From a virus (lineage: Duplodnaviria > Caudoviricetes), in the IMG/VR virus record IMGVR_UViG_3300007734_000735, positions 1 to 60,849 of that record: a stretch of 60,849 nt of DNA, one strand, 5' to 3'. Below the pieces are notes generated by a model. It was not told the DNA's origin. It saw only the letters and a program-made list of their open reading frames with translations, and did no database searches. Shown in pieces: positions 1,735 through 59,802 of the stretch; the first letter of the stretch is position 1; every line of letters starts with the position of its first letter. The position numbers and the translations under genes were made by a program.

Positions 1735-1849
1735 TTAGGATTGCATAGCCAACGATATTTTTAGCAACACCATCAACAAGAATCCAAGCAACAAACATTC
1801 CAAGCATTGTCCATATCTGTCCAATGATGTCATTCAAAAAGTTTTTCAA
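1682..1849 (-). CDS. 55 aa two-TM membrane protein (not in ORF track)
   Basis: AGGAG RBS, TTG overlapping stop of 1846..4128; MKNFLNDIIGQIWTMLGMFVAWILVDG...YPLRRSKD. Confidence 0.65.
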   Translation of the reverse strand: MKNFLNDIIGQIWTMLGMFVAWILVDGVAKNIVGYAILITFGVWVLTYPLRRSKD

Positions 1850-8487: not shown

Positions 8488-8865
8488 ATGGGTTTAAGTT
8501 CTTTTGTTGATGAGGCTCCGTGCCGTAACTCTGACCCATGGCTTTTTGACCAATATCACATTGATTTAGCAATGCCCGCTTTACAAACATGCAAAGGCTG
8601 TCCTTTTTGGCAAAACTGTAACGATTTAGTTGAGCCTCAGAGTAATTTCTTTGATGGAGTTTGTGCTGGCAAAGTATGGCGCAATGGTCGCGTTTTGGCT
8701 AAGTTAGATTCTGCTTTCCCAAACCGTTTGATAGTTGGAGAGGAATTAGATGAAGAAGCCATGGCAGTTCGAGGGAGCGAGTTGCTCGGGAGTGGATACG
8801 GATTATTACTTCCCCGAGAAGAACAAAATCAGCCAAGAGAATTTATTAGCGAAGAAGATTTGTAG
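8488..8865 (+). CDS. WhiB-like Fe-S protein (divergent)
   Basis: C-x3-DP...CKGCP...C...GVCAG. Confidence 0.65.
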   Translation: MGLSSFVDEAPCRNSDPWLFDQYHIDLAMPALQTCKGCPFWQNCNDLVEPQSNFFDGVCAGKVWRNGRVLAKLDSAFPNRLIVGEELDEEAMAVRGSELLGSGYGLLLPREEQNQPREFISEEDL

Positions 8866-10005: not shown

Positions 10006-11421
10006 ATGGCAGAAAGACCTGACCTACAAGAGTTTGGCTCAACTGGTTTACGCCGTTCAGGTGGAACAGTTTATGAAGAATTTCTCGTCAATCTTAGAGG
10101 CATACGCGGTGCAAAGACTTACCGCGAAATGGCAGACAATGACCCAACAATCGGGTCAATGTTGTTTGCAGTTGAAAAAGTTATTACTCGTCTTGAATGG
10201 CGTGTAGACCCATATAGCGATGATTCAGCAGACGGTGAAGTAAATGCTAAAGATAAAGAAGTGGCGGCATTTGTCGAGTCGTGTATTCATGACATGTCCG
10301 ATTCATGGGATGCAACACTTTCACAAATTCTTTCAATGCTTGTATTTGGATTTTCTTATCACGAAATTGTTTACAAAGTCCGTAAGGGTGATGGCAATGA
10401 CCCAAAGAAGCGCTCAAAGCATAATGACGGAAAAATTGGTTGGCGCAAAATGCCTATCCGCGCACAAGAAACTTTATTCCGTTGGGAAATCGATGCAGAC
10501 GGTGGAATTCAAGCCATGTTGCAAGTGGACCCATCAACAGGTGGAATACATACAATTCCAATTGACAAGGCTTTGCTTTTCCGTACAGTAACAACAAAGA
10601 ATAACCCTGAAGGTCGCTCCATTCTTCGTAATGCTTATCGTCCTTGGTTTTTTAAGCGTCGCATTGAAGAAATTGAAGCAATCGGTATTGAGCGTGATTT
10701 AGCAGGATTGCCAGTTGCATACCTACCTCCTGAATATCTTTCTTCATCTGCATCAGCCGAACAACAGGCAGTATTAGCATCAATTCAAAGCATCGTTACA
10801 TCTATCAAGCGTAATGAACAAGAAGGCATTGTGATGCCAGCGATGTACGACGATGCTGGACATAAGATGTTTGACTTGCAGTTGCTTTCATCAGGTGGTT
10901 CTCGTCAGTTCGACACAGACAAGATTATCAATCGCTATGACCAGCGCATGGCAATGTCAATCCTTTCAGACTTTATTCTTCTCGGTTCAGACAGAGTTGG
11001 TTCTTACGCTCTCGGCGCATCCAAGATGGATTTATGGTCAATGGCAGTTGATTCAATTGCTAAGAACATCGCTGAGGTAATGAATCAGTACGCTATTCCT
11101 CGTTTGATGAAGTTGAATGGAATGGACATCTCTCGCGCTCCGTACTTAACTTACGGCGAAGTAAGCCATGTTGATTTAACTGAAATCTCAGACTTTGTAA
11201 CTAAGTTGGCTCAGGCTGGCGTTCTCATGCCTGACCCTAAGTTGGAAGATTATCTTCGCGAGTTGGCAGGTCTACCTCCAGCAGAACACGATGGAACAAA
11301 CTTTGGTATGCCTCCTATGCCTGAAGGTGCAGATAGCGCTGAATTTGATGCACCTCCATCTATGGAAGAAGAGTTAGAGATTCCTGAAGGAGCAGAACCG
11401 CTAGACGGCGATGTGGATTAA
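10006..11421 (+). CDS. Portal protein (Mu gp29/DUF935-like)
   Basis: NPEGRSILRNAY, GIERDLAGLP, GSYALG motifs; size and position. Confidence 0.88.
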   Translation: MAERPDLQEFGSTGLRRSGGTVYEEFLVNLRGIRGAKTYREMADNDPTIGSMLFAVEKVITRLEWRVDPYSDDSADGEVNAKDKEVAAFVESCIHDMSDSWDATLSQILSMLVFGFSYHEIVYKVRKGDGNDPKKRSKHNDGKIGWRKMPIRAQETLFRWEIDADGGIQAMLQVDPSTGGIHTIPIDKALLFRTVTTKNNPEGRSILRNAYRPWFFKRRIEEIEAIGIERDLAGLPVAYLPPEYLSSSASAEQQAVLASIQSIVTSIKRNEQEGIVMPAMYDDAGHKMFDLQLLSSGGSRQFDTDKIINRYDQRMAMSILSDFILLGSDRVGSYALGASKMDLWSMAVDSIAKNIAEVMNQYAIPRLMKLNGMDISRAPYLTYGEVSHVDLTEISDFVTKLAQAGVLMPDPKLEDYLRELAGLPPAEHDGTNFGMPPMPEGADSAEFDAPPSMEEELEIPEGAEPLDGDVD

Positions 11422-11423: not shown

Positions 11424-12431
11424 ATGCCTTTACACTTTGGCGGAGACGGAAAGCGTCGTAATCCATTAACGGTAGAGGAACAGGCGTTAGCCCGCGTTCT
11501 CTACGATGCTATTCGTAAATCAACTAACACAATTAAGGTTGAAGAGTTAGCGCGTATTATTAAGCGCCTTGACCCTGATTCTTTGAATCGACTTCTTAAT
11601 GCAATATCTGTTGCTGGAAACAGAAAACAGATTGAGGATGCTTTGATGGCATCTATTGACATAGGCGGGCAACAAGCAGTTCAACAGATTCAATCTATTG
11701 CGCCTAAATTAGCCTTACCTGCATTTATTCCTAAGCCTGTAAAAATTACAAACAAGGCTCCTATGGCTAACATGGATTTTACAAAGATTCCTTCTTGGGC
11801 AAGCCCAACGCCACCTCCAGTTACATTCTCATTGTCATTTAATAAAACAAACCCAAACTCTTTAGCCTTTGCATCTAAAAGAGCAGGGCAGTTGATTACT
11901 AGCATTGATGAATTAACCCGCATAGCAATTCGCAAGATTATTATTGATTCATTTAATGAGCAGTTGGATTATCGTGCTACCGCTCGTCGCATTAAAAACA
12001 TCATTGGATTACATCCCAAGTGGGCAGATGCAGTAACAAAGTTTGAAAAGCGTGAGTTAGAGCGTTTAATTAAAAGCGGAATGAAAGAGGCAAAAGCCCG
12101 CCAAGCATCTGCCGCGTCTGCATCTAAATATGCTGACAGATTACGCGGTGCAAGAGCCACGATGATTGCTCGAACCGAGATTCAGATTGCACAAAACGAG
12201 GGACGCTACGAAGGCTGGAAACAAGCCGATGAAGCAGGTCTCATAGACCCGAGTTCAATGAAGATGTGGAAAACAGCCGAAGATGAGCGCACCTGCGATA
12301 TTTGCGCCCCCCTTGATGGTGAGATTGTTCCTTGGAACGGTTTGTTCTCTATCGGGCTTGAGTTGCCTACTGTTCACCCTAATTGCCGTTGCCAAATGTT
12401 GATTCTTCCTCCTGATAGGGGAACGCTATGA
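11424..12431 (+). CDS. MuF / SPP1 gp7-like minor head protein
   Basis: IARTE...W.T..DERTC..C...HPNCRC. Confidence 0.9.
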   Translation: MPLHFGGDGKRRNPLTVEEQALARVLYDAIRKSTNTIKVEELARIIKRLDPDSLNRLLNAISVAGNRKQIEDALMASIDIGGQQAVQQIQSIAPKLALPAFIPKPVKITNKAPMANMDFTKIPSWASPTPPPVTFSLSFNKTNPNSLAFASKRAGQLITSIDELTRIAIRKIIIDSFNEQLDYRATARRIKNIIGLHPKWADAVTKFEKRELERLIKSGMKEAKARQASAASASKYADRLRGARATMIARTEIQIAQNEGRYEGWKQADEAGLIDPSSMKMWKTAEDERTCDICAPLDGEIVPWNGLFSIGLELPTVHPNCRCQMLILPPDRGTL

Positions 12432-14794
12432 CCCTAGTAATTAAATTTGAACCTGGGCTTCGTCCAGTATTGAAGCATGAGCAACATGACCAAGCCACCC
12501 ACGGCTCATGGGCTAACGGTACTTCTGAATCTTCTCTAATCTCGACTGATACACAAATTGCATTTGCTGAAGGGGCAATCAAAGCAACGGATAACATCTT
12601 GAGTCCAAGTGCCTATAAATCTCAGTTAGAAGGCAATCTTAATAGAACATATCCAAAAATTTATTTAGAAGAAGCGGTGAATAACCCCGCTTATCAGGAT
12701 GCTCTTCAAACACATCTTAAAAGTATTGGGTTTCCTGAAACGGTTAAGGTCTTTTCTAGTAGCGCTCAAGAAGGCGAATACTTCCATGGTTCTGTTGCAC
12801 CTTTGTGGGATTCAGGAGCAGTTGGTTATGAGAGTGAAGAATCACCAAAAGAATTTTTGGTAAACCGCTCAGACATTATTGGACTTGGAAAAGTAGCAGA
12901 TAGTGGAGTTTGGTTTAGAAATTCAAAGACAGTCAAAAAGCACCAAGAACACGACCAAAAGACGCACGGTAACTGGGCTACGGGCGGAGAAATGGAGAGT
13001 TGGAATCCCAACGACCCAATTCCAGCAAGTCCTCGAAACGCTGGAGGAATGACTCAGAAGATTTGGGATAACTGGGAACACGGTGTAGATGGAAATCAAT
13101 ATGTTGAGTTGTATCGCCAATACGCGGGAGAAGCACTTGGAATTGCCGTACCTAAAAGCAGTATGGATGTTGGCGGTAACTTAAATTATTTAACACAGCG
13201 GGGCTTTGGTGGCTCTTCAACGGATACGGTTAGAAAACAAGCCGAAACAATCTTGCAAACAATTGCGAATGGTAAACCTGAGCAACCAGCCTTGTATCGA
13301 GGAATGACCGCTACGGATGCAGATGGTCAAGCCTTATTAAATAGCATCACAAAACTCAAGGCTGGAGATACGCTGGATATGCCTTTAGTTTCAACAACTC
13401 GTTCTTTAGGAGTTGCAACATGGTACGCCACAGACCGCTCAACAAGCGGAACAGGCAATGTAATTATGAAAATCCAACCTGGAGCAAAAGGCGTATCTCT
13501 ATCTAAAGAGACAAGCCGTTATCCACAAGACTACGAAGTTATCACAAGCGGTAAATTTGAAGTGGTAAGCGTAAATACGATTCAGAGTTCTTATTGGCAA
13601 CGAGGCGTCCTTGAGCCTCGCAAAATTAGTTACACGGATGGCTCTGAGTCGCACTATGAAGTTGCTACCTACAGCCCTCGTAGATACAGCCCTGAAGAGG
13701 CAAAGACCATTTATGAAACAGTTACTAGCGGTAAATACAAATCCCTAGAAACCCCTACTTTCAAAATAACCAACGATAGGCACAATAATTACCCTGACCG
13801 ACCTAAACTATCCACATGGGAAAAACAACCAGCGAGGGAGTTTACCGTGGTGGAGGTTAAGTTCATTGAGCCTCATGTTGTTAGAAAGGCTGAGTCCAAA
13901 GATTACGGATTAACCTTTGATTCGTTATTTAATAACATCCCATTCATTCGTGAAGAAGATATGGAAAAGCACCAACAAGGTCTACACGACCAGCGTACTC
14001 ACGGTTCATGGGCTATGGGCGGGGCTGGGGCTGATATTACTGACGAGTTAGATAAAGTGTTTTTTAACAATAAGTTGAATGTCAAAGAGAGTAAAATTTT
14101 TCCTGGAAGTTTAAGAATACCTACTCAAGCGGAAATTGCTCGCGCTGGCATGAATGACGAAACAATCAAACTAATCGAGGAAATGTCTCAAAAACAAATT
14201 GAAAGCGGGCAAGCATACGGAGACAACGCTCTAAAGATTATTGCTGAACGCCAAGGGTTTACTGGCAAACCAAAAACAGTTGCAACTATAGAAGATTTAC
14301 AGAAGATTCAAAGCACCGAGGCTGGCATTTTGGTATATCGCGGAGTTACTGATTATTCAAGAGCGCAAGCATCAGGCGGTGGTTCAGTTCAACCAACTTA
14401 CACAGCCGAACAAGCATTGACTGATTTTAGAGAAGGTGAGTATTTTGGTGGCTGGGGCGTGTTTGGGAATGGAACCTATACAACTCAACGAATAGATGAG
14501 GCTGTTTCCTATTCAGAAACTATGGATTTAGATAATGGAAAACTTGGTAATGGTCGTGTAATGGCAATGCTAATTCCTAAAAATGCAAAGGCGCCTAGCG
14601 AAACTCTTGTAAAAAGTATTGTAAAAGATATGGTTTATGGCGGAGAACCCAGCCATCGCAATAACATTGGCAGAAGGCTTGCCTCCATGGGTTATCAGTA
14701 TTACGATGCTGGTCATGTTCAAAATGATAAATATGGAACTTATGTAATCCTTGATAGGTCAATGCTTACAGTTGCAGAAAAGGCGGTGGGTTGA
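12428..14794 (+). CDS. Tagged polyprotein 1: three KH..HDQxTHGxW modules, two with ART-like domains
   Basis: Tags at 12473, 12938, 13967; ALYRGM..VSTT..QDYEV and LVYRGV..FGNGTY..YVILDR. Confidence 0.7.
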   Translation: MTLVIKFEPGLRPVLKHEQHDQATHGSWANGTSESSLISTDTQIAFAEGAIKATDNILSPSAYKSQLEGNLNRTYPKIYLEEAVNNPAYQDALQTHLKSIGFPETVKVFSSSAQEGEYFHGSVAPLWDSGAVGYESEESPKEFLVNRSDIIGLGKVADSGVWFRNSKTVKKHQEHDQKTHGNWATGGEMESWNPNDPIPASPRNAGGMTQKIWDNWEHGVDGNQYVELYRQYAGEALGIAVPKSSMDVGGNLNYLTQRGFGGSSTDTVRKQAETILQTIANGKPEQPALYRGMTATDADGQALLNSITKLKAGDTLDMPLVSTTRSLGVATWYATDRSTSGTGNVIMKIQPGAKGVSLSKETSRYPQDYEVITSGKFEVVSVNTIQSSYWQRGVLEPRKISYTDGSESHYEVATYSPRRYSPEEAKTIYETVTSGKYKSLETPTFKITNDRHNNYPDRPKLSTWEKQPAREFTVVEVKFIEPHVVRKAESKDYGLTFDSLFNNIPFIREEDMEKHQQGLHDQRTHGSWAMGGAGADITDELDKVFFNNKLNVKESKIFPGSLRIPTQAEIARAGMNDETIKLIEEMSQKQIESGQAYGDNALKIIAERQGFTGKPKTVATIEDLQKIQSTEAGILVYRGVTDYSRAQASGGGSVQPTYTAEQALTDFREGEYFGGWGVFGNGTYTTQRIDEAVSYSETMDLDNGKLGNGRVMAMLIPKNAKAPSETLVKSIVKDMVYGGEPSHRNNIGRRLASMGYQYYDAGHVQNDKYGTYVILDRSMLTVAEKAVG

Positions 14795-15660
14795 TGCTTA
14801 CTCCAGTCCAGTCTCAGCGCTATGCCCAATTGGTAAACAACTTTAAGGAAAAAGAATTCTATGCTTACCATGAGCATCTTCTCGCGGGCGGGAGAGTTGA
14901 AGATTTCTTTGACAAGATGGAAAAGCACGGTACCCATGACCAAAAGACACATGGTTCATGGGCTGATAGTAATTCTTATGATGAGGTCGAGGCAAAGAAT
15001 GAAATCCTTATGGATGAATGGCGAAAAAAATATGGGATATTGAGTGAGTATTTAGAATCCAAAGGCTTGACCCGCTCATGGAATGAAATTCAAGCCGACC
15101 CCAAAGCAAAAAAGATGCAAGAGGCAGTTGATGCAATTTGGAAAAAAATGCAAACAAATCAGAATAAATTTTATGATGAACATTTTGAAAAGAATGAAAC
15201 TGAGGATTTTGATAGGTTAAGAGATAAATATGTTGTTGCCGACACGCCAACTTTGAAAATGAACAAGCAATTGCGTGAGGGTGGGGGACTTACCCAAAGA
15301 GTTAAAGATGCTGACGCCTTGTGTGCCATGGGGGTCGTTAAAGAACGAGTTGGTGTTTACAGGGGAGCATTTCTTCCAAAAGAACTAATCGATACAATTA
15401 AAGTTGGAACTTCATTTACCGATAAAGGTTTTCAGTCTACCGATGTAGATAAATCTTCTGCTCAGTTTTATGCAAGAAGTAGAAAAGAAGGTGGGGCGCA
15501 GGGAGAACTTGTTTTATTCCGTTATACATTAGAAAAGGGATTAAACGCCATTGATGTTAGTTATGGAGAGGTTGTAGTTCAACGAAATGCAACGATAACT
15601 GTAACTAAAAAAACTAAAAGTGGCGAATATACAATTATTGATGCGACGGTGAATAAATGA
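14791..15660 (+). CDS. Tagged VIP2-like ADP-ribosyltransferase
   Basis: Tag at 14923; MNKQLR, VYRG, DKGFQSTD, GEVVVQR. Confidence 0.75.
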   Translation: MMLTPVQSQRYAQLVNNFKEKEFYAYHEHLLAGGRVEDFFDKMEKHGTHDQKTHGSWADSNSYDEVEAKNEILMDEWRKKYGILSEYLESKGLTRSWNEIQADPKAKKMQEAVDAIWKKMQTNQNKFYDEHFEKNETEDFDRLRDKYVVADTPTLKMNKQLREGGGLTQRVKDADALCAMGVVKERVGVYRGAFLPKELIDTIKVGTSFTDKGFQSTDVDKSSAQFYARSRKEGGAQGELVLFRYTLEKGLNAIDVSYGEVVVQRNATITVTKKTKSGEYTIIDATVNK

Positions 15661-16397
15661 ATAAAGAATTACGCGTCACAATGGATGTTGAAGATTTCCT
15701 TTCAATGTTTTCACAAGTTGATTCTTTTGAGAAGCATCAAGAACATGACCAGCAAACTCACGGCAATTGGGCTTCAGGTAATTATGAGAATCTTGCCGAT
15801 TGGTTTAAAGATGAAGTAAAAGTCTTTGCGTCCGAGACAGATAAAGAAGTTTATTTCATGACTAAACTATTTAGCCAACGCCTCAAAGGTTTCACAGAAA
15901 TGGCTTATCCTGAGTTCTCGGGAGCAATAAATAATTATGAAAGTCGTCTTGGTTATGACATGAATGAGGCTTTGCGTGACCCTCAAATAAGTGAAGATGG
16001 CTATAAATCAACTATTGATTTACTTGATAAGGCGATAGAGACCGCTCCTGCATTGAGTGAAGAGTTGGTTGCTTACCGAGGAGTTAAAGGCAACGGATTA
16101 AAGTTTTTTGAAAATCTTAAAGTTGGAGATACTTACCAAGACAAAGGCTACACATCGACAACAATTGATGCTGGAGTTGCTCAACAATTTGGCGGACAAC
16201 AACCGTATTATGACGGTTTAGTTTTCCGTATGAAGTTACCCGCTGGTACAAAAGGAATCTTTCCTGCGGGCTATCACGAACCTGTAAACGGTTGGACACC
16301 ATCTACGACTGAGGCTGAGTTCTTATTACCGAGAGATAGTAAATTTACTATTGTTGCCCAGCGTGGCAAGGTTTGGGATGTAGAGTACAAACCATGA
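15657..16397 (+). CDS. Tagged VIP2-like ADP-ribosyltransferase (ExE motif)
   Basis: Tag at 15732; MNEALR, AYRGV, DKGYTSTT, EAEFLLPR. Confidence 0.85.
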   Translation: MNKELRVTMDVEDFLSMFSQVDSFEKHQEHDQQTHGNWASGNYENLADWFKDEVKVFASETDKEVYFMTKLFSQRLKGFTEMAYPEFSGAINNYESRLGYDMNEALRDPQISEDGYKSTIDLLDKAIETAPALSEELVAYRGVKGNGLKFFENLKVGDTYQDKGYTSTTIDAGVAQQFGGQQPYYDGLVFRMKLPAGTKGIFPAGYHEPVNGWTPSTTEAEFLLPRDSKFTIVAQRGKVWDVEYKP

Positions 16398-18985
16398 ACC
16401 TAGAGAAGTTCCAACACGCATCCTTGAACGGTCTTTCACTTGTACTGGAAAAGCACGGCTCCCACGACCAAAAGACGCACGGTAACTGGGCAAACCTCAC
16501 AGTTGATGGGCAAACAGTTGAAGGCAAAACCATCACGGGCTTGATAGATAAGTTAAGCGAGAAGAAAACTCCAGGATTTAGTATCGACATCCGCACTAAG
16601 CAATCTGCCAAAGATGGCTTTATTGCCTCTGATGTAGGAGCCGAGAGAGTGCTTGATTTCGCCCCTCTGAAGGCTTCTAGGGCGAGTTTGAGGACTGCTT
16701 TGAAGGATTACATCAACGACCATGCTGAGTTGCTTGATAACAAGGGTAGTTTCTTTGGCGCTTGGGTAGAGCAAGGAAAACTTTACTTAGATGTCTCAAG
16801 AAGGTATAATTCTCGGTCAGAGGGTGTACGAGCAGGATTTAGAAACGAACAAAAAGCAATCTACGATGTAGTCAATGACTCGTACATTTACATGAAGGAT
16901 GAGGTCGATGAGCGAACAAACAAAGCCCGTCTTGGTGGAAACTCCGAAGCCAGTCAAGGAAATGACGGAGAAGGAGAAGGACGCCTTCGTGGACGAAATT
17001 TTGCAAGCGATAGAGGGCAATCTCTAAATCGCCATGTCTGCCTTGGCAGATACACAGTACAAAAACACCGAGAAGGCGAGCATGACCAAGCCACACATGG
17101 CAATTGGGCTGGGGATAGATACCCTGTTGATTCAGTTAAGAGCGCTAGAGATGGCGCAAAAGAATACGCTTTCAAAAAAGGCTTAAAACCTGACGAAACA
17201 ATTGATTACACAAAGGTTGTTGCTAATCGCGAACGAGCATCACGCATTGCTGACATCTATGAAACTTTGCCAAAGAAAGATGTTGAAGCAATTGATGAGT
17301 ATGAGGCGCTGGCATCTGAAGTAGAAGAGCAATTCGACTTTATGACCAAGACTCTTGGGGTCAAGGTTGAGTTCGTTGCTACTGACCCATACAGGACATC
17401 TCAGGAAATGTTTCAAGATGTCAGCCGTGGAAACCTTAAAGTTTTGCAAACAGAGACAACAGGCGCACATCCACTTTTCTCAGATGCTCAAAACAATAAA
17501 TTCCGAGCAGTTCACGATTACTTTGGACACGCGGCTACTGGTCGCGGATTTGGTCAAGATGGCGAAGAGTCCGCATGGGTACATCACTCTCAAATGTTTA
17601 CAGAGAAGGCTCGAGCGGCTCTAACTACTGAGACCCGAGGACAAAATTCATTCTTCAATAATCGCGGAAAACAGTTCGCTGACCAAAAGGTTGCCTTGCT
17701 TCCCGAAGAGTTTTGGGCTGTCCCAGCAACATTTCAGAAGATTAAAGTTATTCGTTTTGCCGCTGGATTGAAGCCAGTAATTAAGCACGAACAACACGAC
17801 CAATCTACTCATGGTAGTTGGGCGCGAGGCAATACGGCTGAAGAGGACGCCTTAATTAACGAAATGGAAGGCGTTGGTCCTTCGCTACAAGATTTAGAAA
17901 ATGCTCTGACCCCCGCCGAACAGCCTGACTACACCGACCTAAAAGATTATGTTAAGAATGATGCGGGTATGTACGAGGCAGCAATTGAGGGAATTGAAGA
18001 AAGAATGAAAGAGCGTTATCAGAATTTAACCGAGGATGAATACAATAAAATAAAAGAACGAGAATTAGATATAATGGTTGAAGAATACATTGATAATGAT
18101 GATGGAACCATTGCACAATTATGGCAAGAGCAAAACGGTACTGAGGAATTTAACGCTGAAGAGTTACATCCTTTCTTTGATGAGGTTTATGCCATGAGCC
18201 ATGATGTCTTAAATGCTCAGGGTGAAGTTGCCACAACTCTTAGTTCATCAACAAATAACATTTATCTTGATGGTGAAAGATTAGTTGTAACTGGCGAAAT
18301 TATGGATGATGCTGGTAATTGGGCTGGAGAGTTCCAACGCGGTTTCTTCAAAAGCCAAGATAGAGAAGGCAACGAAATTTGGGCTGTTGAGCATGACTTA
18401 TTCAAAATGGATGATGAATACGCAGGAGTTGGATTTGGCTCAAAGTTTATAGCCCGACAAGAGGCTTGGTATACCGCTGTGGGAATAGGCAGAATTGATG
18501 TAGGCACCGCTTGGGATGGCGCTCGACATTGGGCTAAATCAGGGTATGACTTCGACGAAAGAGGTATGCGCCAAAATGTAAATGAATTGATAAAGGGAAG
18601 AGCATTTAATCCTGATGATTTTGCTGAAGGTTCAGCAAACCGCCTTGAGTTTGATTCTTTAATTTCAAAAATGGTTACTGATTACGACCCAAGTTCGAGG
18701 TCATTTAATTCAACAAAACCAATTAGATTAGATGATTTTCCTATCCCAAACGATTTCTTGATGATTGGCTATAAAGATAGAGTTCAAATAGGCACTAATC
18801 AAATTACAGGAAAGCCTGTCTATTCATGGGCTGGTGCAAGATTGCTGAACAATCTCAACATGAAGTACCAAAAGGGCTTAAGCAAGGAAGGTCGTTCAAT
18901 CACTCAGGGTCCAATTGACCGCGATGGCGATGGCTTGGTTTATGACGGCACCGCTCGCGAAAAGCCCGCTCCTACGGTAAACTAG
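16394..18985 (+). CDS. Tagged polyprotein 2: two unassigned domains plus C-terminal GNAT acetyltransferase
   Basis: ATGA-coupled start 16394; tags at 16451, 17063, 17783; YAGVGFGSKF...GARHWAKSGYDF. Confidence 0.7.
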   Translation: MNLEKFQHASLNGLSLVLEKHGSHDQKTHGNWANLTVDGQTVEGKTITGLIDKLSEKKTPGFSIDIRTKQSAKDGFIASDVGAERVLDFAPLKASRASLRTALKDYINDHAELLDNKGSFFGAWVEQGKLYLDVSRRYNSRSEGVRAGFRNEQKAIYDVVNDSYIYMKDEVDERTNKARLGGNSEASQGNDGEGEGRLRGRNFASDRGQSLNRHVCLGRYTVQKHREGEHDQATHGNWAGDRYPVDSVKSARDGAKEYAFKKGLKPDETIDYTKVVANRERASRIADIYETLPKKDVEAIDEYEALASEVEEQFDFMTKTLGVKVEFVATDPYRTSQEMFQDVSRGNLKVLQTETTGAHPLFSDAQNNKFRAVHDYFGHAATGRGFGQDGEESAWVHHSQMFTEKARAALTTETRGQNSFFNNRGKQFADQKVALLPEEFWAVPATFQKIKVIRFAAGLKPVIKHEQHDQSTHGSWARGNTAEEDALINEMEGVGPSLQDLENALTPAEQPDYTDLKDYVKNDAGMYEAAIEGIEERMKERYQNLTEDEYNKIKERELDIMVEEYIDNDDGTIAQLWQEQNGTEEFNAEELHPFFDEVYAMSHDVLNAQGEVATTLSSSTNNIYLDGERLVVTGEIMDDAGNWAGEFQRGFFKSQDREGNEIWAVEHDLFKMDDEYAGVGFGSKFIARQEAWYTAVGIGRIDVGTAWDGARHWAKSGYDFDERGMRQNVNELIKGRAFNPDDFAEGSANRLEFDSLISKMVTDYDPSSRSFNSTKPIRLDDFPIPNDFLMIGYKDRVQIGTNQITGKPVYSWAGARLLNNLNMKYQKGLSKEGRSITQGPIDRDGDGLVYDGTAREKPAPTVN
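16908..17027 (+). CDS. Nested out-of-frame 39 aa protein (candidate immunity)
   Basis: GAGGT RBS then MSEQTKPVLVETPKPVKEMTEKEKDAFVDEILQAIEGNL*; host frame there is a G/R-rich linker. Confidence 0.5.
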   Translation: MSEQTKPVLVETPKPVKEMTEKEKDAFVDEILQAIEGNL

Positions 18986-18989
18986 CCTT

Positions 18990-19136
18990 ATGAAGAGACA
19001 AGAGAGATTAGACGCCTTATCGAAACTCCATGCCTCCATGCCTGTTGAGATGGAAGGTTTGCCTGACGATAACGAGGTCGCTTTCTTGGATAAGGTAGTA
19101 GAACAAAAACTAACTACGGTTCAGGAAACTAAATAA
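18990..19136 (+). CDS. 48 aa protein, probably leaderless (candidate GNAT antitoxin)
   Basis: TAAACT 6 nt before ATG; MKRQERLDALSKLH... Confidence 0.55.
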   Translation: MKRQERLDALSKLHASMPVEMEGLPDDNEVAFLDKVVEQKLTTVQETK

Positions 19137-19167
19137 CAGTTGTAAATCTATCCGCTATCATTGCAAC

Positions 19168-21375
19168 ATGGCGGATATAGCCCCAAAGTTAATTTCTTTA
19201 AGCGTTGAGAAACTACTCGCGCTTCATGAGCGTATTCATAAGTCTGAAGCCTCTTCAGCAACAATCGAGGTTCACCACACAATTCTCAATGAGTTGGCTC
19301 GTCGCAAGATGGAGGCTCCCAAAGATAATTGGGACGACTTTGAAATTCTTGTTGATTCCATTAACGATGTAGACCTGACATCCTTTGGCTCATCCTTGCC
19401 AGCCGAAATGGTTGCAGAAGTTATTAAATCTAGCGGTAGCAATGTCGGCAATGTGCAGACTTTCCTCACCTCGCAAGGTTATGAAATGCGAATTGAGCCG
19501 ATTGAACTAGACCCTATCGAGAAGATGATTCGCGAAGAAGATGGCGAGTTCACAGTTTATGATTCAACGGGACGACGCAGATTTGGCACTTATCCATCAA
19601 AGAAAAAGGCTGAAGAGCGCCTTGCACAAATTGAAAGATTTTCTAAAGCAGATAACACTCCACCCAAGGCAGTTCGCTCCGCCGCTCGTCGCGCACTTGA
19701 TTGGATTGGCGAAGGTAAGGCTGGTGGAGGATTTACTTCAGTTGGTCGCGCCCGCGCATCGCAGTTGGCTTCAGGAGAATCTGTCTCGTTAGAAACTCTC
19801 AAGCGAATGAAATCTTTTTTCTCACGCCATGAAGTAGATAAGAACGCGCTTGGATTTAGCCAAGGAGAAAAGGGTTATCCATCTCCAGGTCGCGTTGCTT
19901 GGGATGCTTGGGGCGGAGATGCAGGATTCGCATGGGCTGAGTCCATGGTTGCTCGCGCCGAAAGAGAAGAAGAAGTTGCAAAACATAATCCTGGCAAACA
20001 CGACCAAAAAACTCATGGCTCTTGGGCTGATGGCATTGCAGATGCAATCAACAACGGCGAACACCCAATGGTTGAAAAAGAAAATGTTTCGGCGTTTCTA
20101 CTTAAAGCATCAACCCGCACAGACCACCCTGACTTAACTGAATTGAGCATTGAAGGAACATTGCTCTACGGCGATGAAGGTATGGGAATTGCCCGTAAGG
20201 ACATGCCGCAAATTCCTGGCAAAGAACGCGCTCGTTTCTTAGAAGAGATTGAAAAGAGCGATGGCATTACAGTTGAAAAAGAGAAGGTAGACCCAACAAC
20301 CTTAAAACCAATTCAAAAAGAAATCTCTGCCGCTCGCTCAGGTGCTATCTATAAGAAGTTTCAAGAGGATGGCGAGATTCCAAAGAACGAACGCATACTT
20401 ATTTCTAAAGATGGTTTTGTAATCGATGGACACCATACATGGGGCGCCGCGGTTGCTTTTGCTTTTGATAATCCTGGAACTGAGTTGCCTGTCTATCGTT
20501 TATCTGTCACAGCAAAAGAAGCGTTAGCCATCTCATCAAAGTGGTCGAAGGATAATGGTTTTGAGGGTCAAGCAATTGACGCGAAAGAGCCAGCCAAGAA
20601 AAACCTCACATGGCAAACACTTACAAAGCATGGAAATCATGACCAGCGCACCCATGGCTCATGGGCGAATAACATGGTTTCAGACATTGAACCTGAGCAG
20701 GGACAATCAAAAGAAGCCATTGCACTTGCTCGCGCAGTTCGAGAAAAAGCAGTTGCGGCTGAGCCAGTAATCACAAAATTAGTTGAAGGTATTGCAGAGC
20801 AATCAGGTGCAAAACTTGAAGGTCTTTCACAACGCATTAAATCAACAGATTCTCTTGCACGAAAGATTGACCAAGATGCCGAGCAGGGATACCAAGGAGA
20901 TAGAAAGAAAGCGGCTGAAGAAATCTCTGATGCAAACCGTTACACAATCTCAGTCAATGACACAGATTATTTAGATACACTAAATTCTGCTGTTACTGCA
21001 TTTGAGGCAACTGGGTGGAAAGTCCGAGTTAAAAACTTTTGGCAGTCAGGCGACCCTTACGATGGTGTGAACATCAAGGCAGAGCGTGATGGCATTAAAG
21101 TTGAGTTGCAGGTACACACTCCAAAGTCATACCAAACCAAAGAAAAAGCCCTTCACGACATTTACAAGGAATACAGAAAATCTATCGATGATGCAGTCCG
21201 TCGTAGCAATTGGGACAAGATGGTAAGCATTGCTAAGCGGGTTCCTCGCCCAGCCAATTACGCTACCGTTCTTGGAATTGGTTCATTAGTTATTCAGCAA
21301 TTTGAGACCGCTCAACAGGCTGGCTTGATAAAATCAACTGGGGTTGGTAAACTATCCCATGAGGGGAGGGCATAA
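19168..21375 (+). CDS. Tagged polyprotein 3: small head-associated domains, ParB/Srx-like domain, RelA/SpoT small alarmone synthetase
   Basis: Tags at 19981, 20626; VIDGHHTW; RIKSTDSLARKI..DANRY..YDGVN..VELQVHT..H. Confidence 0.8.
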   Translation: MADIAPKLISLSVEKLLALHERIHKSEASSATIEVHHTILNELARRKMEAPKDNWDDFEILVDSINDVDLTSFGSSLPAEMVAEVIKSSGSNVGNVQTFLTSQGYEMRIEPIELDPIEKMIREEDGEFTVYDSTGRRRFGTYPSKKKAEERLAQIERFSKADNTPPKAVRSAARRALDWIGEGKAGGGFTSVGRARASQLASGESVSLETLKRMKSFFSRHEVDKNALGFSQGEKGYPSPGRVAWDAWGGDAGFAWAESMVARAEREEEVAKHNPGKHDQKTHGSWADGIADAINNGEHPMVEKENVSAFLLKASTRTDHPDLTELSIEGTLLYGDEGMGIARKDMPQIPGKERARFLEEIEKSDGITVEKEKVDPTTLKPIQKEISAARSGAIYKKFQEDGEIPKNERILISKDGFVIDGHHTWGAAVAFAFDNPGTELPVYRLSVTAKEALAISSKWSKDNGFEGQAIDAKEPAKKNLTWQTLTKHGNHDQRTHGSWANNMVSDIEPEQGQSKEAIALARAVREKAVAAEPVITKLVEGIAEQSGAKLEGLSQRIKSTDSLARKIDQDAEQGYQGDRKKAAEEISDANRYTISVNDTDYLDTLNSAVTAFEATGWKVRVKNFWQSGDPYDGVNIKAERDGIKVELQVHTPKSYQTKEKALHDIYKEYRKSIDDAVRRSNWDKMVSIAKRVPRPANYATVLGIGSLVIQQFETAQQAGLIKSTGVGKLSHEGRA

Positions 21376-22081
21376 TAAATTGCGATACTTTGTAAACTTT
21401 TACCGTAATAAGCCACATACTCTATGGCGTTTTGATGTTGAGCCTGACCGTGTTCTCGAAGAGCGCTGGGATGGCTTGTCATGGACTCCCACGACCTACA
21501 TCGCCGAGTACCTCATAGATGGCGAAGCAAACATTGATGAGATTACTCCTGAGTTGGCTATGAAAACTTTTCCAGTTGCTTTCAATGATGTTGCTAAATC
21601 TATTGGCGCTTATGAAGTTTCTAAGGCTGAGGGCGAGAAGCGATACACACTAGGGGCTATGTACATCCCTGACCGCCTTGATGCACACAATGAGTGGACA
21701 GATGCCGAGGAGTTGCAAAGAGCAGTTTGGGATTATGTCCGCAGTAATGACCGCCGTATTCGACTACAACACAATCGCGAAATTGTTGCAGGTGAATGGG
21801 TTGAAGTTATGTCATTCCCATACGAATTAACAGTTCCAATTACAACCCCAAGTGGAATTATGGTCAATCACACTTATCCTGCGAACACGGTTTTCCTTGG
21901 TGTTATTTGGGAGGAATGGGCATGGGAGAAGATTCAACGCGGAGAGATTCTTGGCTATTCAATTGGTGGACGAGCAGAGCGCCTATATGTGGACATGGAA
22001 AAGAACGACCCAACTGTTACCGATGTGCATGTTGATACAATTATGAAACCATCGAAAAAGAAGCCAAAGGAAGCCAAATGA
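21359..22081 (+). CDS. XkdF-like prohead serine protease with extra N-terminal domain
   Basis: YIPDRLDAH..EELQRA..LQH..WEKIQRGEILGYSIGG; start uncertain (ATG 21359 or TTG 21380). Confidence 0.8.
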   Translation: MRGGHNKLRYFVNFYRNKPHTLWRFDVEPDRVLEERWDGLSWTPTTYIAEYLIDGEANIDEITPELAMKTFPVAFNDVAKSIGAYEVSKAEGEKRYTLGAMYIPDRLDAHNEWTDAEELQRAVWDYVRSNDRRIRLQHNREIVAGEWVEVMSFPYELTVPITTPSGIMVNHTYPANTVFLGVIWEEWAWEKIQRGEILGYSIGGRAERLYVDMEKNDPTVTDVHVDTIMKPSKKKPKEAK

Positions 22082-22482
22082 AAGACAAAAAGATTCTCAA
22101 AGAACTCCGCAATGGTCCTATGAAAAACATGAAGGACGAGGAGTACGCCATGATTGAAGAAGAAGTCAATCAAAAGGGAATCAAAGGTCTTAAAGGTTAC
22201 GCCAAGTCAATGATTGAAAAGGCTATGCGAGATATGGCTTATTCAATGAAAAAGGCTCTTTCTGTTTCAACAGGTGACATGGTTTCTTGGAATTCATCAG
22301 GTGGCATGGCTACAGGCAAGATTGTCCGTATTGTGCGTGAGGGCAAAATCAATGTTCCTGATTCAAGTTTTGAGATTGAAGGAACCGAAGATGACCCAGC
22401 CGCTTTGATTCAGTTGTACCGCGATGGCAAGCCAACTGAGACAAAAGTTGGACATAAGGTTTCAACACTAAAAAAAGCCTAA
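22078..22482 (+). CDS. Tudor/SH3-like (DUF2945-type) head-region protein; -1 frame extension to 22715
   Basis: GDMVSWNSSGG..GKI..GTEDDPA..VGHK.STL. Confidence 0.7.
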   Translation: MKDKKILKELRNGPMKNMKDEEYAMIEEEVNQKGIKGLKGYAKSMIEKAMRDMAYSMKKALSVSTGDMVSWNSSGGMATGKIVRIVREGKINVPDSSFEIEGTEDDPAALIQLYRDGKPTETKVGHKVSTLKKA

Positions 22483-22711
22483 GCCTAGACAAACATCTAG
22501 GCACCGTTCACGACCAAAAAACTCACGGTGGAAAATACAACACCGATGATGCTGAGGGTGAGGATAGTTCTGAACCAAAGAACTTCAGGGGCAAAAAGCC
22601 AAAGGTAAGTTACGACGAAAACGACACAGACGGTGAGTTCGACAATAACGCCGATGACCCAAAATGGATGGATGACATGGACATCTTGAGACCACCTGCT
22701 AGAAACAAGCG

Positions 22712-22975
22712 ATGAAAACAATTATTGATAGCACAATTGAGATTCTGAGTTCAATGAATCTCAAGGCAAATAAGGTCACAACGCCTCCTGGCTATGCAGG
22801 AATTCAAATTGATTTACCCAACGACTCCCAAGCCTTTTTTGTGTGGAGCAAAATGGATGACGATGACTTCCATTTCAGGACAGCGCGTTTTTGGGCAAAC
22901 GACAATCCTTTTTCAATGTGGATTTGTCCAAACTTGCCCGAGGCTCTAGCCCAAACGAGGGTTTTAATAAACTAA
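22712..22975 (+). CDS. Hypothetical protein
   Basis: 87 aa; ATGA overlap with the frameshift-extension stop. Confidence 0.65.
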   Translation: MKTIIDSTIEILSSMNLKANKVTTPPGYAGIQIDLPNDSQAFFVWSKMDDDDFHFRTARFWANDNPFSMWICPNLPEALAQTRVLIN

Positions 22976-23078: not shown

Positions 23079-23876
23079 TTGGCTGGTCGTACTCGTAAGA
23101 TGGTGAATTTAGCCATCGAGGAAACTAGCGGGGTAGACCATCCCGCTCATCTACACGAAGGTTGGCTTGTAATGAAGTCAGCCGAAGAATCTGAAGTTCA
23201 GAGGGTTTTAGACGAATCGCTCACCGAGGAGGACTCCACAATGGAGGATACATCTACCACGGCTACTGAAGAGCAGGTTGTAAATCCTACTGAGGAACTA
23301 ACCATCGCTAAGGCTCGCATCTCTGAACTTGAAGAGGCATTAGCCAAGGCTTCTGCGGACGCTGAAATGTCCGAAGAAGATAAGAAAAAGAAAAAGATGG
23401 AAGAGGAATCCTCTGAGGAGATGGACTACATGAAGTCCGCACCTGAGTCAGTCGTCAAAATGATTGAGAACTTCCGCAAGCAAGCAGAAGAAGCAACCGC
23501 AGAACTTAAAAAAGAACGCGATGCTCATGCTGATGCAGAAGCAGTTGAAAAAGCAAAGAGTTGGGCAAACCTCAATCTCGATGCAGAAAAAGTTGGTCCA
23601 GCACTACGCCGTCTATCAAATGTAGACGCAGAACTAGCAAAGTCAGTTGAAGAACTACTTGCTTCAGTCAATGCACAGGCTGAATCAGCACAAATTTTTG
23701 CGGAAATCGGCAAATCCGCAGACTTCAAATCAGGAAATGCTTATGAGCGTATGACTACGCTTGCTAAGTCAGCCGTTGAAGAGGGTGTAGCAAAGTCATT
23801 CGAGCAAGCGCTCGCTGATGTTGCTACAAAGAACCCTGACCTTTACAGCCAATACCTATCCGAGAAAGGTGCCTAA
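23079..23876 (+). CDS. Capsid scaffolding protein
   Basis: EETSGVDHPA..LVMKS start, acidic coiled coil, C-terminal NPDLY; upstream of capsid genes. Confidence 0.75.
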   Translation: MAGRTRKMVNLAIEETSGVDHPAHLHEGWLVMKSAEESEVQRVLDESLTEEDSTMEDTSTTATEEQVVNPTEELTIAKARISELEEALAKASADAEMSEEDKKKKKMEEESSEEMDYMKSAPESVVKMIENFRKQAEEATAELKKERDAHADAEAVEKAKSWANLNLDAEKVGPALRRLSNVDAELAKSVEELLASVNAQAESAQIFAEIGKSADFKSGNAYERMTTLAKSAVEEGVAKSFEQALADVATKNPDLYSQYLSEKGA

Positions 23877-24290: not shown

Positions 24291-25268
24291 ATGCCACAGC
24301 CACACATTAACTCCGTCCATGTGGACGCAATTCTGACTAACATCTCAGTTGCATACCTACAAAATCAGGACAATTTCATTGCAGACAAAGTATTCCCAGT
24401 AATTCCTGTGGATAAGAAGTCTGACAAGTATTTCACTTACACCAAGAACGATTGGTTCCGCGATGAGGCTCAACGCCGTGCGCCTGGAACTGAATCTGCT
24501 GGTGGCGGATACAACCTATCAACAGGCACATACTCAGCAGATGTATGGGCTTTCCACAAGGATGTAGACGACCAAACAACTGCAAACGCAGACGCACCTT
24601 TGAACCCTCTTCGTGAGGCAACAGAGTTCGTAACTCGTCGCTTGATGCTCCGTCGTGAACTTCAGTTCGTAACTGATTTCTTCACAACAGGTGTATGGGC
24701 AGACGATGTAACTGGCGTCTCAGGCGCTCCATCTTCAGGTCAGACAAAGCAATGGTCAGACTACACAGCATCAGACCCAATTTCAGACATCGAAGCGGCA
24801 AAGGCTGAGATTCTTGGAAACACAGGTATGGAAGCAAACACTCTTGTTCTTGGATACGATGTATTCAAGTCACTCAAGAATCACCCTGACTTGGTAGACC
24901 GTATCAAGTACACATCGGCTCAGACAATTACAACAGACATGATTGCGGCAATGTTCGACATTCCTCGCGTCATGGTTGCTAAGGCTGTCAAGGCTACAAA
25001 CAACGAGGGTGCATCAGAGGCTTACGGCTTTGCTTATGGCAAAGGCGCACTTCTAACACATGTTGCTCCAAACCCAGGACTACTAACTCCTTCTGCTGGA
25101 TACACATTCTCATGGACTGGCGTATCAGGCGGACTTGGACAGACAATTGGAACATCACAGTTCCGTATGGAATCAATCAAGGCGGACCGTATCGAAGCAG
25201 AAATGGCTTTCGATAACAAGGTAATTGCATCTGACCTCGGTTATTTCTGGAACACAATCGTCGCTTAA
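24291..25268 (+). CDS. Major capsid protein
   Basis: LTNISVAY..FIADKVFP, W.D..SDPI.DI; followed by terminator. Confidence 0.88.
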   Translation: MPQPHINSVHVDAILTNISVAYLQNQDNFIADKVFPVIPVDKKSDKYFTYTKNDWFRDEAQRRAPGTESAGGGYNLSTGTYSADVWAFHKDVDDQTTANADAPLNPLREATEFVTRRLMLRRELQFVTDFFTTGVWADDVTGVSGAPSSGQTKQWSDYTASDPISDIEAAKAEILGNTGMEANTLVLGYDVFKSLKNHPDLVDRIKYTSAQTITTDMIAAMFDIPRVMVAKAVKATNNEGASEAYGFAYGKGALLTHVAPNPGLLTPSAGYTFSWTGVSGGLGQTIGTSQFRMESIKADRIEAEMAFDNKVIASDLGYFWNTIVA

Positions 25269-58679: not shown

Positions 58680-59606
58680 CTACAAGTCGGGAATAACAAC
58701 CTCGGTTTGAACCGCCGTAAGTGCAAGCATGGCGTTGCGCCATACCTCGGGAGTTCCCGTGTCAGGCAAGTAACCGCCCGCTCCACCTAGAAGGATGGGC
58801 ATGTCATGGAACTGCTCTCTAACGGCTCGGAGTGACCTCCAATAGCCCGCTGGTGTGTAAGCAAGTTCGCTCAATGGGTCATCTTTGAGACCATCTGCCC
58901 CACATGCTACAAAAATCATCGTAGGCTCGAATTCAGCGCAAGCCTCAAAGAAAGATTCAGTCGCAGTCATTAAATCTGCATCATCTGAATCACGGGTCAG
59001 CGGAAAGTTATAGGCACGGTTTTTGTAATCCGAGATTAAACCTGTTCCTGGAAAAATTCCGTATTGGTGAACAGAAAATGTCATGACATTTTTGTTAGCC
59101 TTGAGCAACATCTCAGTACCGTCGCCATGGTGTGCATCAATATCAAAGATTGCTACGCGCTCGCCTAGTTCAGTTGCCTTTGTCGCGGCGATAGCGAAAT
59201 CTGCAAAGATACAAAACCCGCTGGAGTAATCGCGCATGGCGTGATGCTTTGCACCTGCCAAGTTGATAGCAAGCAAAGTTTTCTTATCAAGCAAAACATC
59301 TAGGGCTGTCAATGTCCCGCCAACAAATAACTTTGCTAGTTCGCCGAGGTCATGACGCTGACCATCCCATTCATCTGATTCACCTTTGATAGTGACATCA
59401 TGAACATAGATAGGGTCATGCACCAAGAGAAGGTCATCGGTATGTGGCATCTCAGGATGGATTTCATCTACATTGAGACGACGCTTCTGAGCCTCCAACA
59501 TAATCTGATTACGCCCATGCAGAAATCGTCGCCCCTGTGTAGGGTGCGACTTATCGAAAATCCAGTTCGCATATTCGGGCGAATGAACAAGAATTGCGTG
59601 TTCCAT
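58680..59606 (-). CDS. Zn-dependent histone deacetylase-family (AcuC-like) enzyme
   Basis: GAKHHA, SGFC, DIDAHHGDGT, SVHQ..FPGTG, GAD...DPL, GGY. Confidence 0.9.
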   Translation of the reverse strand: MEHAILVHSPEYANWIFDKSHPTQGRRFLHGRNQIMLEAQKRRLNVDEIHPEMPHTDDLLLVHDPIYVHDVTIKGESDEWDGQRHDLGELAKLFVGGTLTALDVLLDKKTLLAINLAGAKHHAMRDYSSGFCIFADFAIAATKATELGERVAIFDIDAHHGDGTEMLLKANKNVMTFSVHQYGIFPGTGLISDYKNRAYNFPLTRDSDDADLMTATESFFEACAEFEPTMIFVACGADGLKDDPLSELAYTPAGYWRSLRAVREQFHDMPILLGGAGGYLPDTGTPEVWRNAMLALTAVQTEVVIPDL

Positions 59607-59773
59607 CAATCTTCATACCTCTCTTTGAGTGGATAAAGATAACCGCCCATTGCGACATCTGCACCAGTTTTAATAACAACATCATCGGCTGAGAGTTCGA
59701 CCTTTGCATCAGGGAAAAACTGCACAATCCATTTTTGTAAATCTTCTTTTGTTTCTACTTCAGCAATGTCCAT
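59606..59773 (-). CDS. Small hypothetical protein
   Basis: GAGAGGA RBS; TGATG coupling to deacetylase. Confidence 0.6.
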   Translation of the reverse strand: MDIAEVETKEDLQKWIVQFFPDAKVELSADDVVIKTGADVAMGGYLYPLKERYED

Positions 59774-59802
59774 TTCCCATCCTCTCTATTATTAACCCCA
59801 GT

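Follow-up and report, generated by a model that had tools for sequence, protein, structure and literature searches.

The virus record IMGVR_UViG_3300007734_000735, which is complete and was analysed over its full length of 60,849 bases (the window), appears to carry at positions 20626-21583 a toxin-immunity cassette set inside a gene for a head polyprotein and its prohead protease. The toxin half, which closes a cargo polyprotein (polyprotein 3) as its last module and resembles the toxin domain of Apk2 (Apk2tox), would most likely act as a (p)ppApp synthetase and drain ATP. The immunity half would be a 68-residue domain, similar to the Apk2 inhibitor IapK, that lies across the catalytic cleft and silences the synthetase in the producing cell. 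The two halves are separated by a stop and a restart of translation and the cassette sits just upstream of the protease, so that the immunity half would be translated as the N-terminus of an XkdF-type prohead protease, followed by a flexible linker. The evidence computed here consists of the homology of both halves, their covariation among related loci, a cassette swap at the same site and a predicted interface. Taking it together, we consider it likely that an Apk2tox-like synthetase is a head cargo kept inactive in the producer by an IapK-like front of the protease, which a coupled restart would produce, perhaps with a contribution from an internal promoter.

The last module of polyprotein 3 resembles the toxin domains of Apk2

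A previous reading of this stretch, made from its letters and open reading frames (ORFs) and called here the sequence-only reading, had recognized a RelA/SpoT synthetase in the last module of polyprotein 3. All the sequence features that it cited were found at their places, and the assignment was borne out by database searches. The module contains RIKSTDSLARK, DANRY, YDGVN and ELQVHT. A phmmer search of PDB sequences returned 8vx3 ('SaSAS') with an E-value of 1.3e-11 over residues 524-697 (174 residues), and tblastn matched 104 phage records, the best with an E-value of 2e-20 and about 36% identity over residues 533-701. These best matches lie at the C-terminal ends of MuF proteins from phages of Streptococcus and Pasteurella.

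When 16 modules with identities down to 35% were aligned, R70, K72, D102, R105, Y106, Y145, G147, N149, E160, Q162 and H164 were invariant in all of them; the catalytic roles that we attach to individual motif residues are presumptive. These findings identify the module as an intact small alarmone synthetase of the toxSAS type, closest to the (p)ppApp-synthetase toxin domains of Apk2.

The protease opens with an IapK-like domain

The ORF that follows polyprotein 3 reads RYFVNFYRNKPHTLWRF, EERWDGLSW and YLIDGEANIDEITPELA in turn, then VAKS and VSKA, and then a PF14550 protease domain. Its N-terminal domain (N-dom) was compared with IapK by hhalign. A profile of 106 N-dom sequences matched a profile of 10 IapK sequences with a probability of 94.1% (E 1.2e-7, 60 columns, positions 1-62 of the 69 in IapK), and a smaller profile of 19 N-dom sequences matched the same 10 with a probability of 74.5% (E 2.7e-5). 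The larger profile consisted of these 19 sequences and 87 full-length relatives from a large HMMER search with N-dom, which gave 242 representatives at E ≤ 0.001 and 76 at E ≤ 1e-10. With a local hidden Markov model (HMM), 10 of 10 IapK sequences scored positive (6.6-20.3 bits). N-dom also matches IapK in size and in its position directly after the synthetase, and when modelled alone it reached a predicted local distance difference test score (pLDDT) of 94. N-dom is thus related to IapK and would be the cognate immunity domain of the synthetase.

Two other likenesses were set aside. Searches of PDB sequences with N-dom profiles and with IapK returned nothing above chance level, and the best of these hits, to blades of fucose lectins (E 0.0022 and 0.19), are confined to a local motif, a W-D-x-x-W strand; the same effect accounts for the multi-repeat propeller proteins P0125, P0184, P0207 and P0208 returned by the large search.

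N-dom is predicted to cover the catalytic cleft

The sequence-only reading had suggested predicting the structure of the complex. The prediction placed N-dom over the catalytic cleft of the synthetase with a score of 0.89 in three of three runs, versus 0.45 for the best of three controls. The runs agreed in at least 80% of contacts, and the pLDDT of the partner was at least 92. The predicted interface comprises D102, K136, D143, Y145, N149, Q162, K172 and Y180, all invariant or nearly so, and residues 221-232 of the C-terminal tail of the synthetase also contact N-dom in the model. The model supports binding of N-dom to the synthetase.

N-dom follows the synthetase through four gene arrangements

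A search with the protease protein yielded 80 related loci, which together with the window made 81 sources; five elements were mapped on them by tblastn and local HMMs. N-dom was found in 40 of these sources, the synthetase module in 39 and both in 38; the other 40 had neither. N-dom without a synthetase was seen in L014 and L030, whose contigs begin 158 and 295 nucleotides before the protease domain; the synthetase cannot be scored there because the contig ends just upstream. L076 has a synthetase and, in the next ORF, a marginal N-dom-like match (E 0.0078). In 38 of the 39 synthetase-bearing sources, N-dom lies directly downstream of the synthetase. The sequence-only reading had named one finding that would speak against the pair, namely the domain on an XkdF protease that lacks an upstream synthetase; none was found in the 81 sources, L014 and L030 being unscorable.

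The pair occurs in four arrangements. The window and most loci have the synthetase, a stop and then an N-dom-protease ORF. Synthetase, N-dom and protease share one frame without a stop in L029, L031 and the library protein P0147. A protease-synthetase fusion is followed in L037 by a free 78-residue N-dom gene with its own ribosome-binding site. Finally, L038 and L051 have a polyprotein made of a MuF end, the synthetase and a further module (by eye with RSE-type ADP-ribosyltransferase motifs), then a free N-dom gene, then a protease with a different N-terminus. Of the 40 N-dom copies, 37 are thus part of a protease ORF and three stand free, those of L037, L038 and L051, all outside the seed of the N-dom HMM. 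In these three loci N-dom has parted from the protease and remained beside the synthetase, and it therefore follows the synthetase and not the protease.

Fusions to other proteins were also observed. Among the 30 longest of the best 150 representatives of the large search (all above 125 residues), five library proteins carry N-dom on ADP-ribosyltransferase polyproteins, joined by a KH..HDQ..HG linker. In P0094, P0101, P0107 and P0084, N-dom is fused to a domain of 150-190 residues with the motif GKLxCFxWWCxEC and no Pfam family, which follows N-dom in three of these proteins and precedes it in P0084. Of the 150 best representatives, 124 have at most 160 residues and could have been read as free-standing genes; this count was not used, as several of them end at contig edges or in junk. 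Protease fusion is not obligatory for N-dom. N-dom is evidently joined to whatever follows the cassette. Its fusion to the protease would then result from where the cassette lies, a view compatible with the phage exploiting the fusion.

The protease ORF of L037 (5818-7674) showed a more elaborate form. It has an N-terminal domain of the kind that accompanies Zeta toxins (see below) and a C-terminal synthetase after a KHPGHPDQKAHAGG linker, with the free N-dom gene next to it; the L037 protease is thus flanked by two toxin-immunity pairs.

An unrelated cassette fills the same site in close relatives

The proteases of L026, L019 and L025 are 83-86% identical to that of the window. In L026 the site is empty, with no synthetase and no N-dom: the reading frame continues from the second module of polyprotein 3 directly into the protease. 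L019 and L025 have a Zeta_toxin module (PF06414) there, and the protease then opens with an unrelated small domain, here called B-ext. The Pfam assignment held for five of five Zeta modules tested (E about 1e-23 to 1e-25). B-ext is acidic and has about 70-90 residues and no Pfam family. It was found in 10 of the 13 loci with a Zeta module: eight have it fused to the protease, and in L036 and L039 it forms an ORF of its own downstream of a protease-Zeta fusion. Seven of the 10 copies were in the HMM seed, with L036 and L039 outside it. B-ext is a candidate new antidote to a Zeta-type kinase.

Each of the two unrelated toxin modules thus brings its own small partner, and this partner forms the protease N-terminus whenever the cassette lies upstream of the protease. 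In 23 loci, including L035, L036, L038, L039, L051-L056 and L058-L065, the N-terminal module of polyprotein 3 shares the reading frame of the protease, to which it is directly fused. A joined polyprotein-protease gene looks like the ground state and the cassettes look like insertions; a toxin-immunity cassette inserted into such a gene is the simplest reading of the window.

Translation restart, linker and protease

The immunity-protease ORF most likely starts at TTG 21380, because a Shine-Dalgarno sequence, GAGGGGAGGG, lies 9 nucleotides upstream of this codon and because it aligns with the ATG starts of relatives. The two TAA stops of polyprotein 3 also precede it, 4 nucleotides separating the polyprotein 3 stop from the TTG. 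Behind so strong a Shine-Dalgarno sequence, translation would restart at this codon. The start listed for the ORF, TTG 21344, was set aside in favour of TTG 21380, and an in-frame ATG at 21359 was rejected, as it reads CTG in L001, L002, L003 and L012.

In a full-length model, N-dom had a pLDDT of 80-90 and residues 70-86 (DVAKSIGAYEVSKAEGE) were below 50, with the protease domain next. The edge xSKA...(K/R)(Y/F)TLG is conserved on proteases of every architecture; VAKS and VSKA thus belong to the protease's own N-terminal border, and these strings may be processing sites. The protease sits in a head gene cluster, with portal, MuF and major capsid genes around it. It is about 53% identical to proteases of Arthrobacter phages, whose N-terminal domains differ.

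A promoter-like site in the 3' end of the synthetase

The sequence-only reading had given the immunity-protease ORF a promoter of its own, with a regulatory box. The string on which this was based, AACTGGGGTTGGTAAACT, lies exactly at 21336-21353, and the box, AACTGGGGTT, at 21336-21345 in the spacer of the promoter-like site. By count alone the site is unremarkable: it matches the sigma-70-type consensus at 9 of 12 positions and has the TG, and the region contains 6 such sites versus 5.1 ± 2.0 in shuffles, which is chance level. The box itself is over-represented, with six exact copies in the window and 15 copies at up to one mismatch, versus 3.5 ± 1.75 expected. At 4201 and at 59794 (minus strand), TAAAT or TAATAA, a ribosome-binding site and a start codon come after it, arranged as at 21336. 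A phage regulator probably binds to the box.

The elements of the site are also kept in relatives. The -35 TTGNNN, the AAC-N4-GTT box and TGNTAnnnT were found in L001-L003, L007, L009-L013, L015-L018, L020, L022 and L023, and in variant form in L037 and L046; TGNTATAAT is perfect in L016, L022 and L046. The synthetase frame of L018-L023 stops inside the promoter-like site or directly past it. The box upstream of N-dom is the exact reverse complement, AACCCCAGTT, in L002 and L007-L012, where a Gly of the synthetase tail is changed to Pro. The site was absent from L040, L028, L029, L044 and L032. Between 21301 and 21405, nucleotide identity to the window rises to a peak of 0.78-0.85, versus 0.54-0.71 on either side, and equals there the level of the catalytic motifs; part of this peak may come from the C-terminal tail that contacts N-dom and from the ribosome-binding site. 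The claim of an own promoter thus gains from the conserved elements and from the recurrence of the box at gene starts, and loses from a match count equal to chance. On balance we lean slightly towards an internal promoter at this place, which may add an immunity-protease transcript.

Cargo modules and genome setting

The features of the region are collected in Table 1. The head region starts with the portal gene, followed by MuF as an ORF of its own and by about 9 kb of large cargo ORFs. Each cargo module opens with the linker KH(x2-4)HDQxTHG(S/N)WA, of which there are 11 copies, all on the plus strand, within 12485-22529; the second module of polyprotein 3 opens with its KHNPGKHDQKTHGSWA form, and relatives have variants such as KHPGHPDQKVHAGG in L037 and KHYSGQHSQQSHAGGG in L038. 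These linkers may be processing sites of the prohead protease. Pfam searches gave no family for modules 1 and 2 of polyprotein 3 and none for 8 of 9 other cargo pieces. By eye, we take two modules of polyprotein 1 to resemble R-S-E ADP-ribosyltransferases and the second module of polyprotein 3 to be ParB-like.

The eleventh linker (LDKHLGTVHDQKTHGG) lies just past the Tudor-like ORF in a different, stop-to-stop frame (22458-22715, plus strand). This frame has no ATG, GTG or TTG start that would yield 40 residues, and could be a frameshift product, a protein with an unusual start or a remnant.

Table 1. Positions of the cassette, its neighbours and recurring elements. Positions are those of the window unless a locus is named.
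Feature	Position	Strand	Remarks
Portal	10006-11418		start of head region
MuF (PF04233)	11424-12428		own ORF
Large cargo ORF	12428-14794
Large cargo ORF	14791-15660
Large cargo ORF	15657-16397		ADP-ribosyltransferase (PF03496)
Large cargo ORF	16373-18985
Polyprotein 3	19168-21375	+	large cargo ORF of 735 residues; synthetase is its third and last module
Polyprotein 3, modules 1 and 2	19168-20625	+	N-terminal module, residues 1-272; second module, residues 273-486
Apk2tox-like toxSAS module	20626-21375	+	linker KHGNHDQRTHGSWA at 20626-20667; TAA 21373-21375
Promoter-like site	21325-21353	+	inside synthetase 3' end; TTGATA 21325-21330, 17-nucleotide spacer, TG, TAAACT 21348-21353
Translation restart (most likely)	21361-21382	+	Shine-Dalgarno GAGGGGAGGG 21361-21370; TAA TAA 21373-21378; TTG 21380-21382
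XkdF-protease ORF	21380-22081		downstream of cargo ORFs
N-dom, IapK-like putative immunity domain	21380-21583	+	68 residues; beta-beta-beta-beta-alpha-beta-alpha
Linker NDVAKSIGAYEVSKAEGE	21584-21637	+	predicted disordered; contains VAKS and VSKA
XkdF prohead protease domain (PF14550, Peptidase_S78_2)	21614-21982	+	48.7 bits versus cut-off of 24
Lysine-rich C-terminal tail and stop	21983-22081	+	residues 191-233 with pLDDT below 50
Tudor-like ORF	22078-22482		next to the protease ORF
ORF	23079-23876		PHROG family without known function; no Pfam family
Major capsid protein	24291-25268
Cargo linker copies	12485, 12950, 13985, 14935, 15744, 16463, 17081, 17795, 19999, 20638, 22509	+
Exact copies of the box	771, 4201, 21336, 56419	+	mostly promoter-like intergenic; usually TAAnnT directly after
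Exact copies of the box	54880, 59794	-	as above
Zeta + B-ext cassette	L019:2140-3293; L025:8835-10000; L037:4901-6096		in L036 and L039 downstream of protease

A WhiB-like regulator gene (8488-8862) and the protease identity to Arthrobacter phages point to an actinobacterial host. Parts of the stretch are present in lake, river and freshwater metagenomes, and the G+C content of the genome is about 44%. These features suggest low-G+C freshwater Actinobacteria. One metatranscriptome shares 0.05 of the words of the stretch, as assembled contigs. A megablast search of a phage collection with 19168-22481 gave no match. No integrase or repressor was found among the window ORFs scanned, which were part of all its ORFs, and a temperate lifestyle is thus not evident.

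Two further ORFs, both on the minus strand, stood out. The early region contains a 309-residue ORF (58683-59609) with a histone-deacetylase domain (PF00850, E 1e-55), which is unusual for a phage. A 760-residue ORF (1849-4128) lies where the G+C content is raised (0.50) and the GC skew strong, and has no PHROG or Pfam match.

Discussion

The sequence-only reading had proposed that the immunity domain is produced separately and cut off the protease during head maturation. Its toxSAS-type synthetase and its cognate immunity domain, the latter now supported by IapK homology, strict co-occurrence in four arrangements and a predicted complex over the active site, both stand, and an own promoter is plausible. 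Separate production of the domain stays conjectural, synthetase, domain and protease being encoded in one frame in L029, L031 and P0147, and so do its cleavage from the protease and a coupling of neutralization to head maturation.

We considered the possibility that the fusion serves to disarm the inhibitor at a set time. Bound to the synthetase, the domain would be carried into the prohead by the protease, and at maturation it would be cut off or degraded along with the protease, leaving the toxin in the virion uninhibited and ready for injection. Consistent with this, protease fusions account for 37 of the 40 N-dom copies and for 8 of the 10 small domains of the unrelated Zeta cassette, about 17 residues with a pLDDT below 50 link N-dom to the protease, and many relatives have a covalent bond between polyprotein and protease, which suggests that cargo and protease normally enter the head together. 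Yet the sample of loci is enriched for fusions, N-dom is free in L037, L038 and L051 and sits on ADP-ribosyltransferase polyproteins in five library proteins, and the border with VAKS and VSKA is conserved whatever lies upstream, with no cleavage site known. We therefore regard timed disarming as possible and rather doubtful. The predicted complex could also be viewed as a packaging tether, in which N-dom would be a non-covalent link that takes polyprotein 3 into the prohead with the protease and replaces the bond broken by the stop. It is true that polyprotein and protease are in frame in L026 and many others and stop-separated in the window, and that the complex would re-join them. However, a free-standing N-dom, as in L037, L038 and L051, cannot link anything to the protease, L029 and L031 lack a stop that a tether could make up for, the predicted interface includes invariant residues of the catalytic cleft, as would be expected for an inhibitor, and the homologue IapK is a tested inhibitor (PMC12226406). 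These points make a tether improbable.

A still less probable view is that the 68 residues have no immunity role at all and represent a pro-peptide of the protease or a split-off C-terminal piece of the synthetase, the linkage being due to shared ancestry. All the loci belong to related phages, so that linkage could be inherited, the fused forms in L029, L031 and P0147 read as one protein, and the Pfam family Tis1_ImmP did not match. Against this, N-dom leaves the protease and remains with the synthetase in L037, L038 and L051, both halves are lost or swapped together in L026, L019 and L025, the homology to IapK has a probability of 94%, and the domain folds alone with a pLDDT of 94. Like the tether, this view agrees poorly with the data.

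Several points weigh against the preferred reading, a synthetase silenced by an IapK-like domain. Toxicity of the synthetase, its product, its packaging or injection and the fate of the immunity domain are what we infer from the computed results; (p)ppApp as product, and toxicity, would follow by analogy from about 36% identity to the toxin domains of Apk2. PF04607 (RelA_SpoT) matched the module below its gathering score (14.4 bits versus 27, E 0.046), with 111 of 113 profile positions aligned. The locus counts are not independent events, since the loci are from related phages, and the weight lies on the four arrangements and the cassette swap; moreover, the query was the N-dom-protease protein, which enriched the sample for the fused form. 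The complex model may mirror the solved Tas1-Tis1 complex instead of this pair. Of 80 solved complexes, 58 attained the mark used to judge it, as did 2 of 110 mismatched pairs; this calibration holds only roughly here, since self-made alignments (16 synthetases, 19 N-dom sequences) were the input. No match to the Streptococcus phage hydrolase Aph1 was found in the window at E-values up to 1, in a search run without a positive control; with no Aph1-like hydrolase in the window, the known layout with two immunity genes is incomplete here.

The likeness to Tis1 is also limited. An exhaustive structure alignment ranked Tis1 (6ox6_B) third of 48,161 chains, with a root-mean-square deviation of 3.7 over 58 residues and a Z of 4.0, a weak match that was tied with unrelated chains, a Z below 8 being compatible with a common arrangement. 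Foldseek of N-dom against the PDB gave nothing at E ≤ 0.001, PF24154 (Tis1_ImmP) had no match in the window at E-values up to 10, and Pfam scans of N-dom and of IapK yielded no family, Tis1_ImmP included. 6OX6 was not returned by profile searches of the PDB. In an Atlas neighbour cluster, Tis1_ImmP is annotated on 11% of members (score 0.87), which is a lead only. The Tis1 match appears weak by score but specific in kind. Because of the IapK profile match, the weak Tis1 fold match and the null result with PF24154, we file N-dom as IapK-like and only distantly Tis1-like.

To our knowledge, phage-borne (p)ppApp synthetase toxins with immunity of the IapK or Tis1 type have been known only as MuF fusions of temperate phages. 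Among these, Apk2, a MuF protein fused to a (p)ppApp synthetase, is followed by IapK, a tested inhibitor that binds the toxin and occludes its acceptor site, and then by the hydrolase Aph1 (PMC12226406). Such systems are described in temperate phages of S. pneumoniae, M. haemolytica, P. multocida and B. caccae (PMC12226406, PMC11699363, PMC5576092), the Bacteroides counterpart of IapK being named BcTis1 (PMC11699363). The phages with the best matches to the synthetase of the window have a MuF gene, then an ORF of 68-72 residues, then an HD phosphohydrolase, an order that corresponds to the Apk2/IapK/Aph1 layout (PMC12226406). The window resembles Apk2/IapK in its synthetase, about 36% identical, in the IapK-homologous immunity sequence of about 70 residues directly after it, in the predicted binding to the cleft, and in its location in the head-morphogenesis region, between MuF and the protease, scaffold and capsid genes. 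It differs in that the toxin is not fused to MuF but is the third module of a polyprotein that in relatives is fused to the protease, and in that the immunity sequence is the N-terminus of a protease, whereas IapK is a free gene.

Other systems share some of these features. Tas1 (Apk1) and Tis1 of the type VI secretion system of Pseudomonas aeruginosa (PDB 6OX6) also combine a (p)ppApp-type toxin with a small protein that neutralizes its active site, but have no match here at the sequence level, and the toxin is delivered by a secretion system, not by a phage head. Polyvalent proteins of phages and conjugative elements have several effector domains per polypeptide beside head genes (PMC5512222), and RelA/SpoT domains are recorded in them and in fusion with MuF (Iyer, Burroughs, Aravind 2017; PMC5512222). 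Unlike these, the modules described here are separated by repeated KHxxHDQxTHGxWA linkers, and their series ends in the prohead protease; it also has an embedded immunity domain, of which the available part of PMC5512222 makes no mention. FaRel, FaRel2, PhRel and CapRel are toxSAS proteins with an adjacent or fused neutralizer (PMC11782079, PMC12691689), and the one-frame forms in L029 and L031 recall the fused CapRel; a PDB search with the synthetase at E-values up to 1 returned none of the four. The neutralizer here is IapK-like, and not a hydrolase, a Panacea domain or a pseudo-zinc-finger, and the toxin would be virion cargo rather than part of a chromosomal defence. SaEAS, the PDB relative of the synthetase, makes both (p)ppApp and (p)ppGpp (PMC12691689). 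In the literature searched, whose coverage was incomplete, we found no description of an immunity domain on a prohead protease; the supplements of PMC5576092 and PMC5512222 might list such fusions. The parts are known, namely toxSAS, IapK/Tis1, the XkdF protease and polyvalent cargo, and what appears new is an exchangeable cassette in a polyprotein-protease gene with its immunity half on the protease.

This locus would add to the known systems a toxin-immunity pair that is an exchangeable cassette in the multi-toxin head polyprotein of a phage from freshwater with a probably actinobacterial host, with an alternative Zeta-toxin cassette at the same site and with the immunity half translated within the head maturation protease. 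The arrangement offers a testable route by which a virion may be loaded with active toxin while the producing cell is protected. It also provides a comparative rule for finding new immunity domains, which is to inspect the protease N-terminus or the ORF after the last module. More tentatively, the prohead protease might be a general carrier of cognate immunity domains, for synthetase and Zeta toxins, the toxin staying inactive until it and its inhibitor have entered the prohead, the inhibitor being destroyed or expelled with the protease at maturation and the toxin armed only in the sealed, ATP-free capsid. If true, this would answer how a polymorphic toxin delivered by a phage sheds a tightly bound immunity protein before injection.

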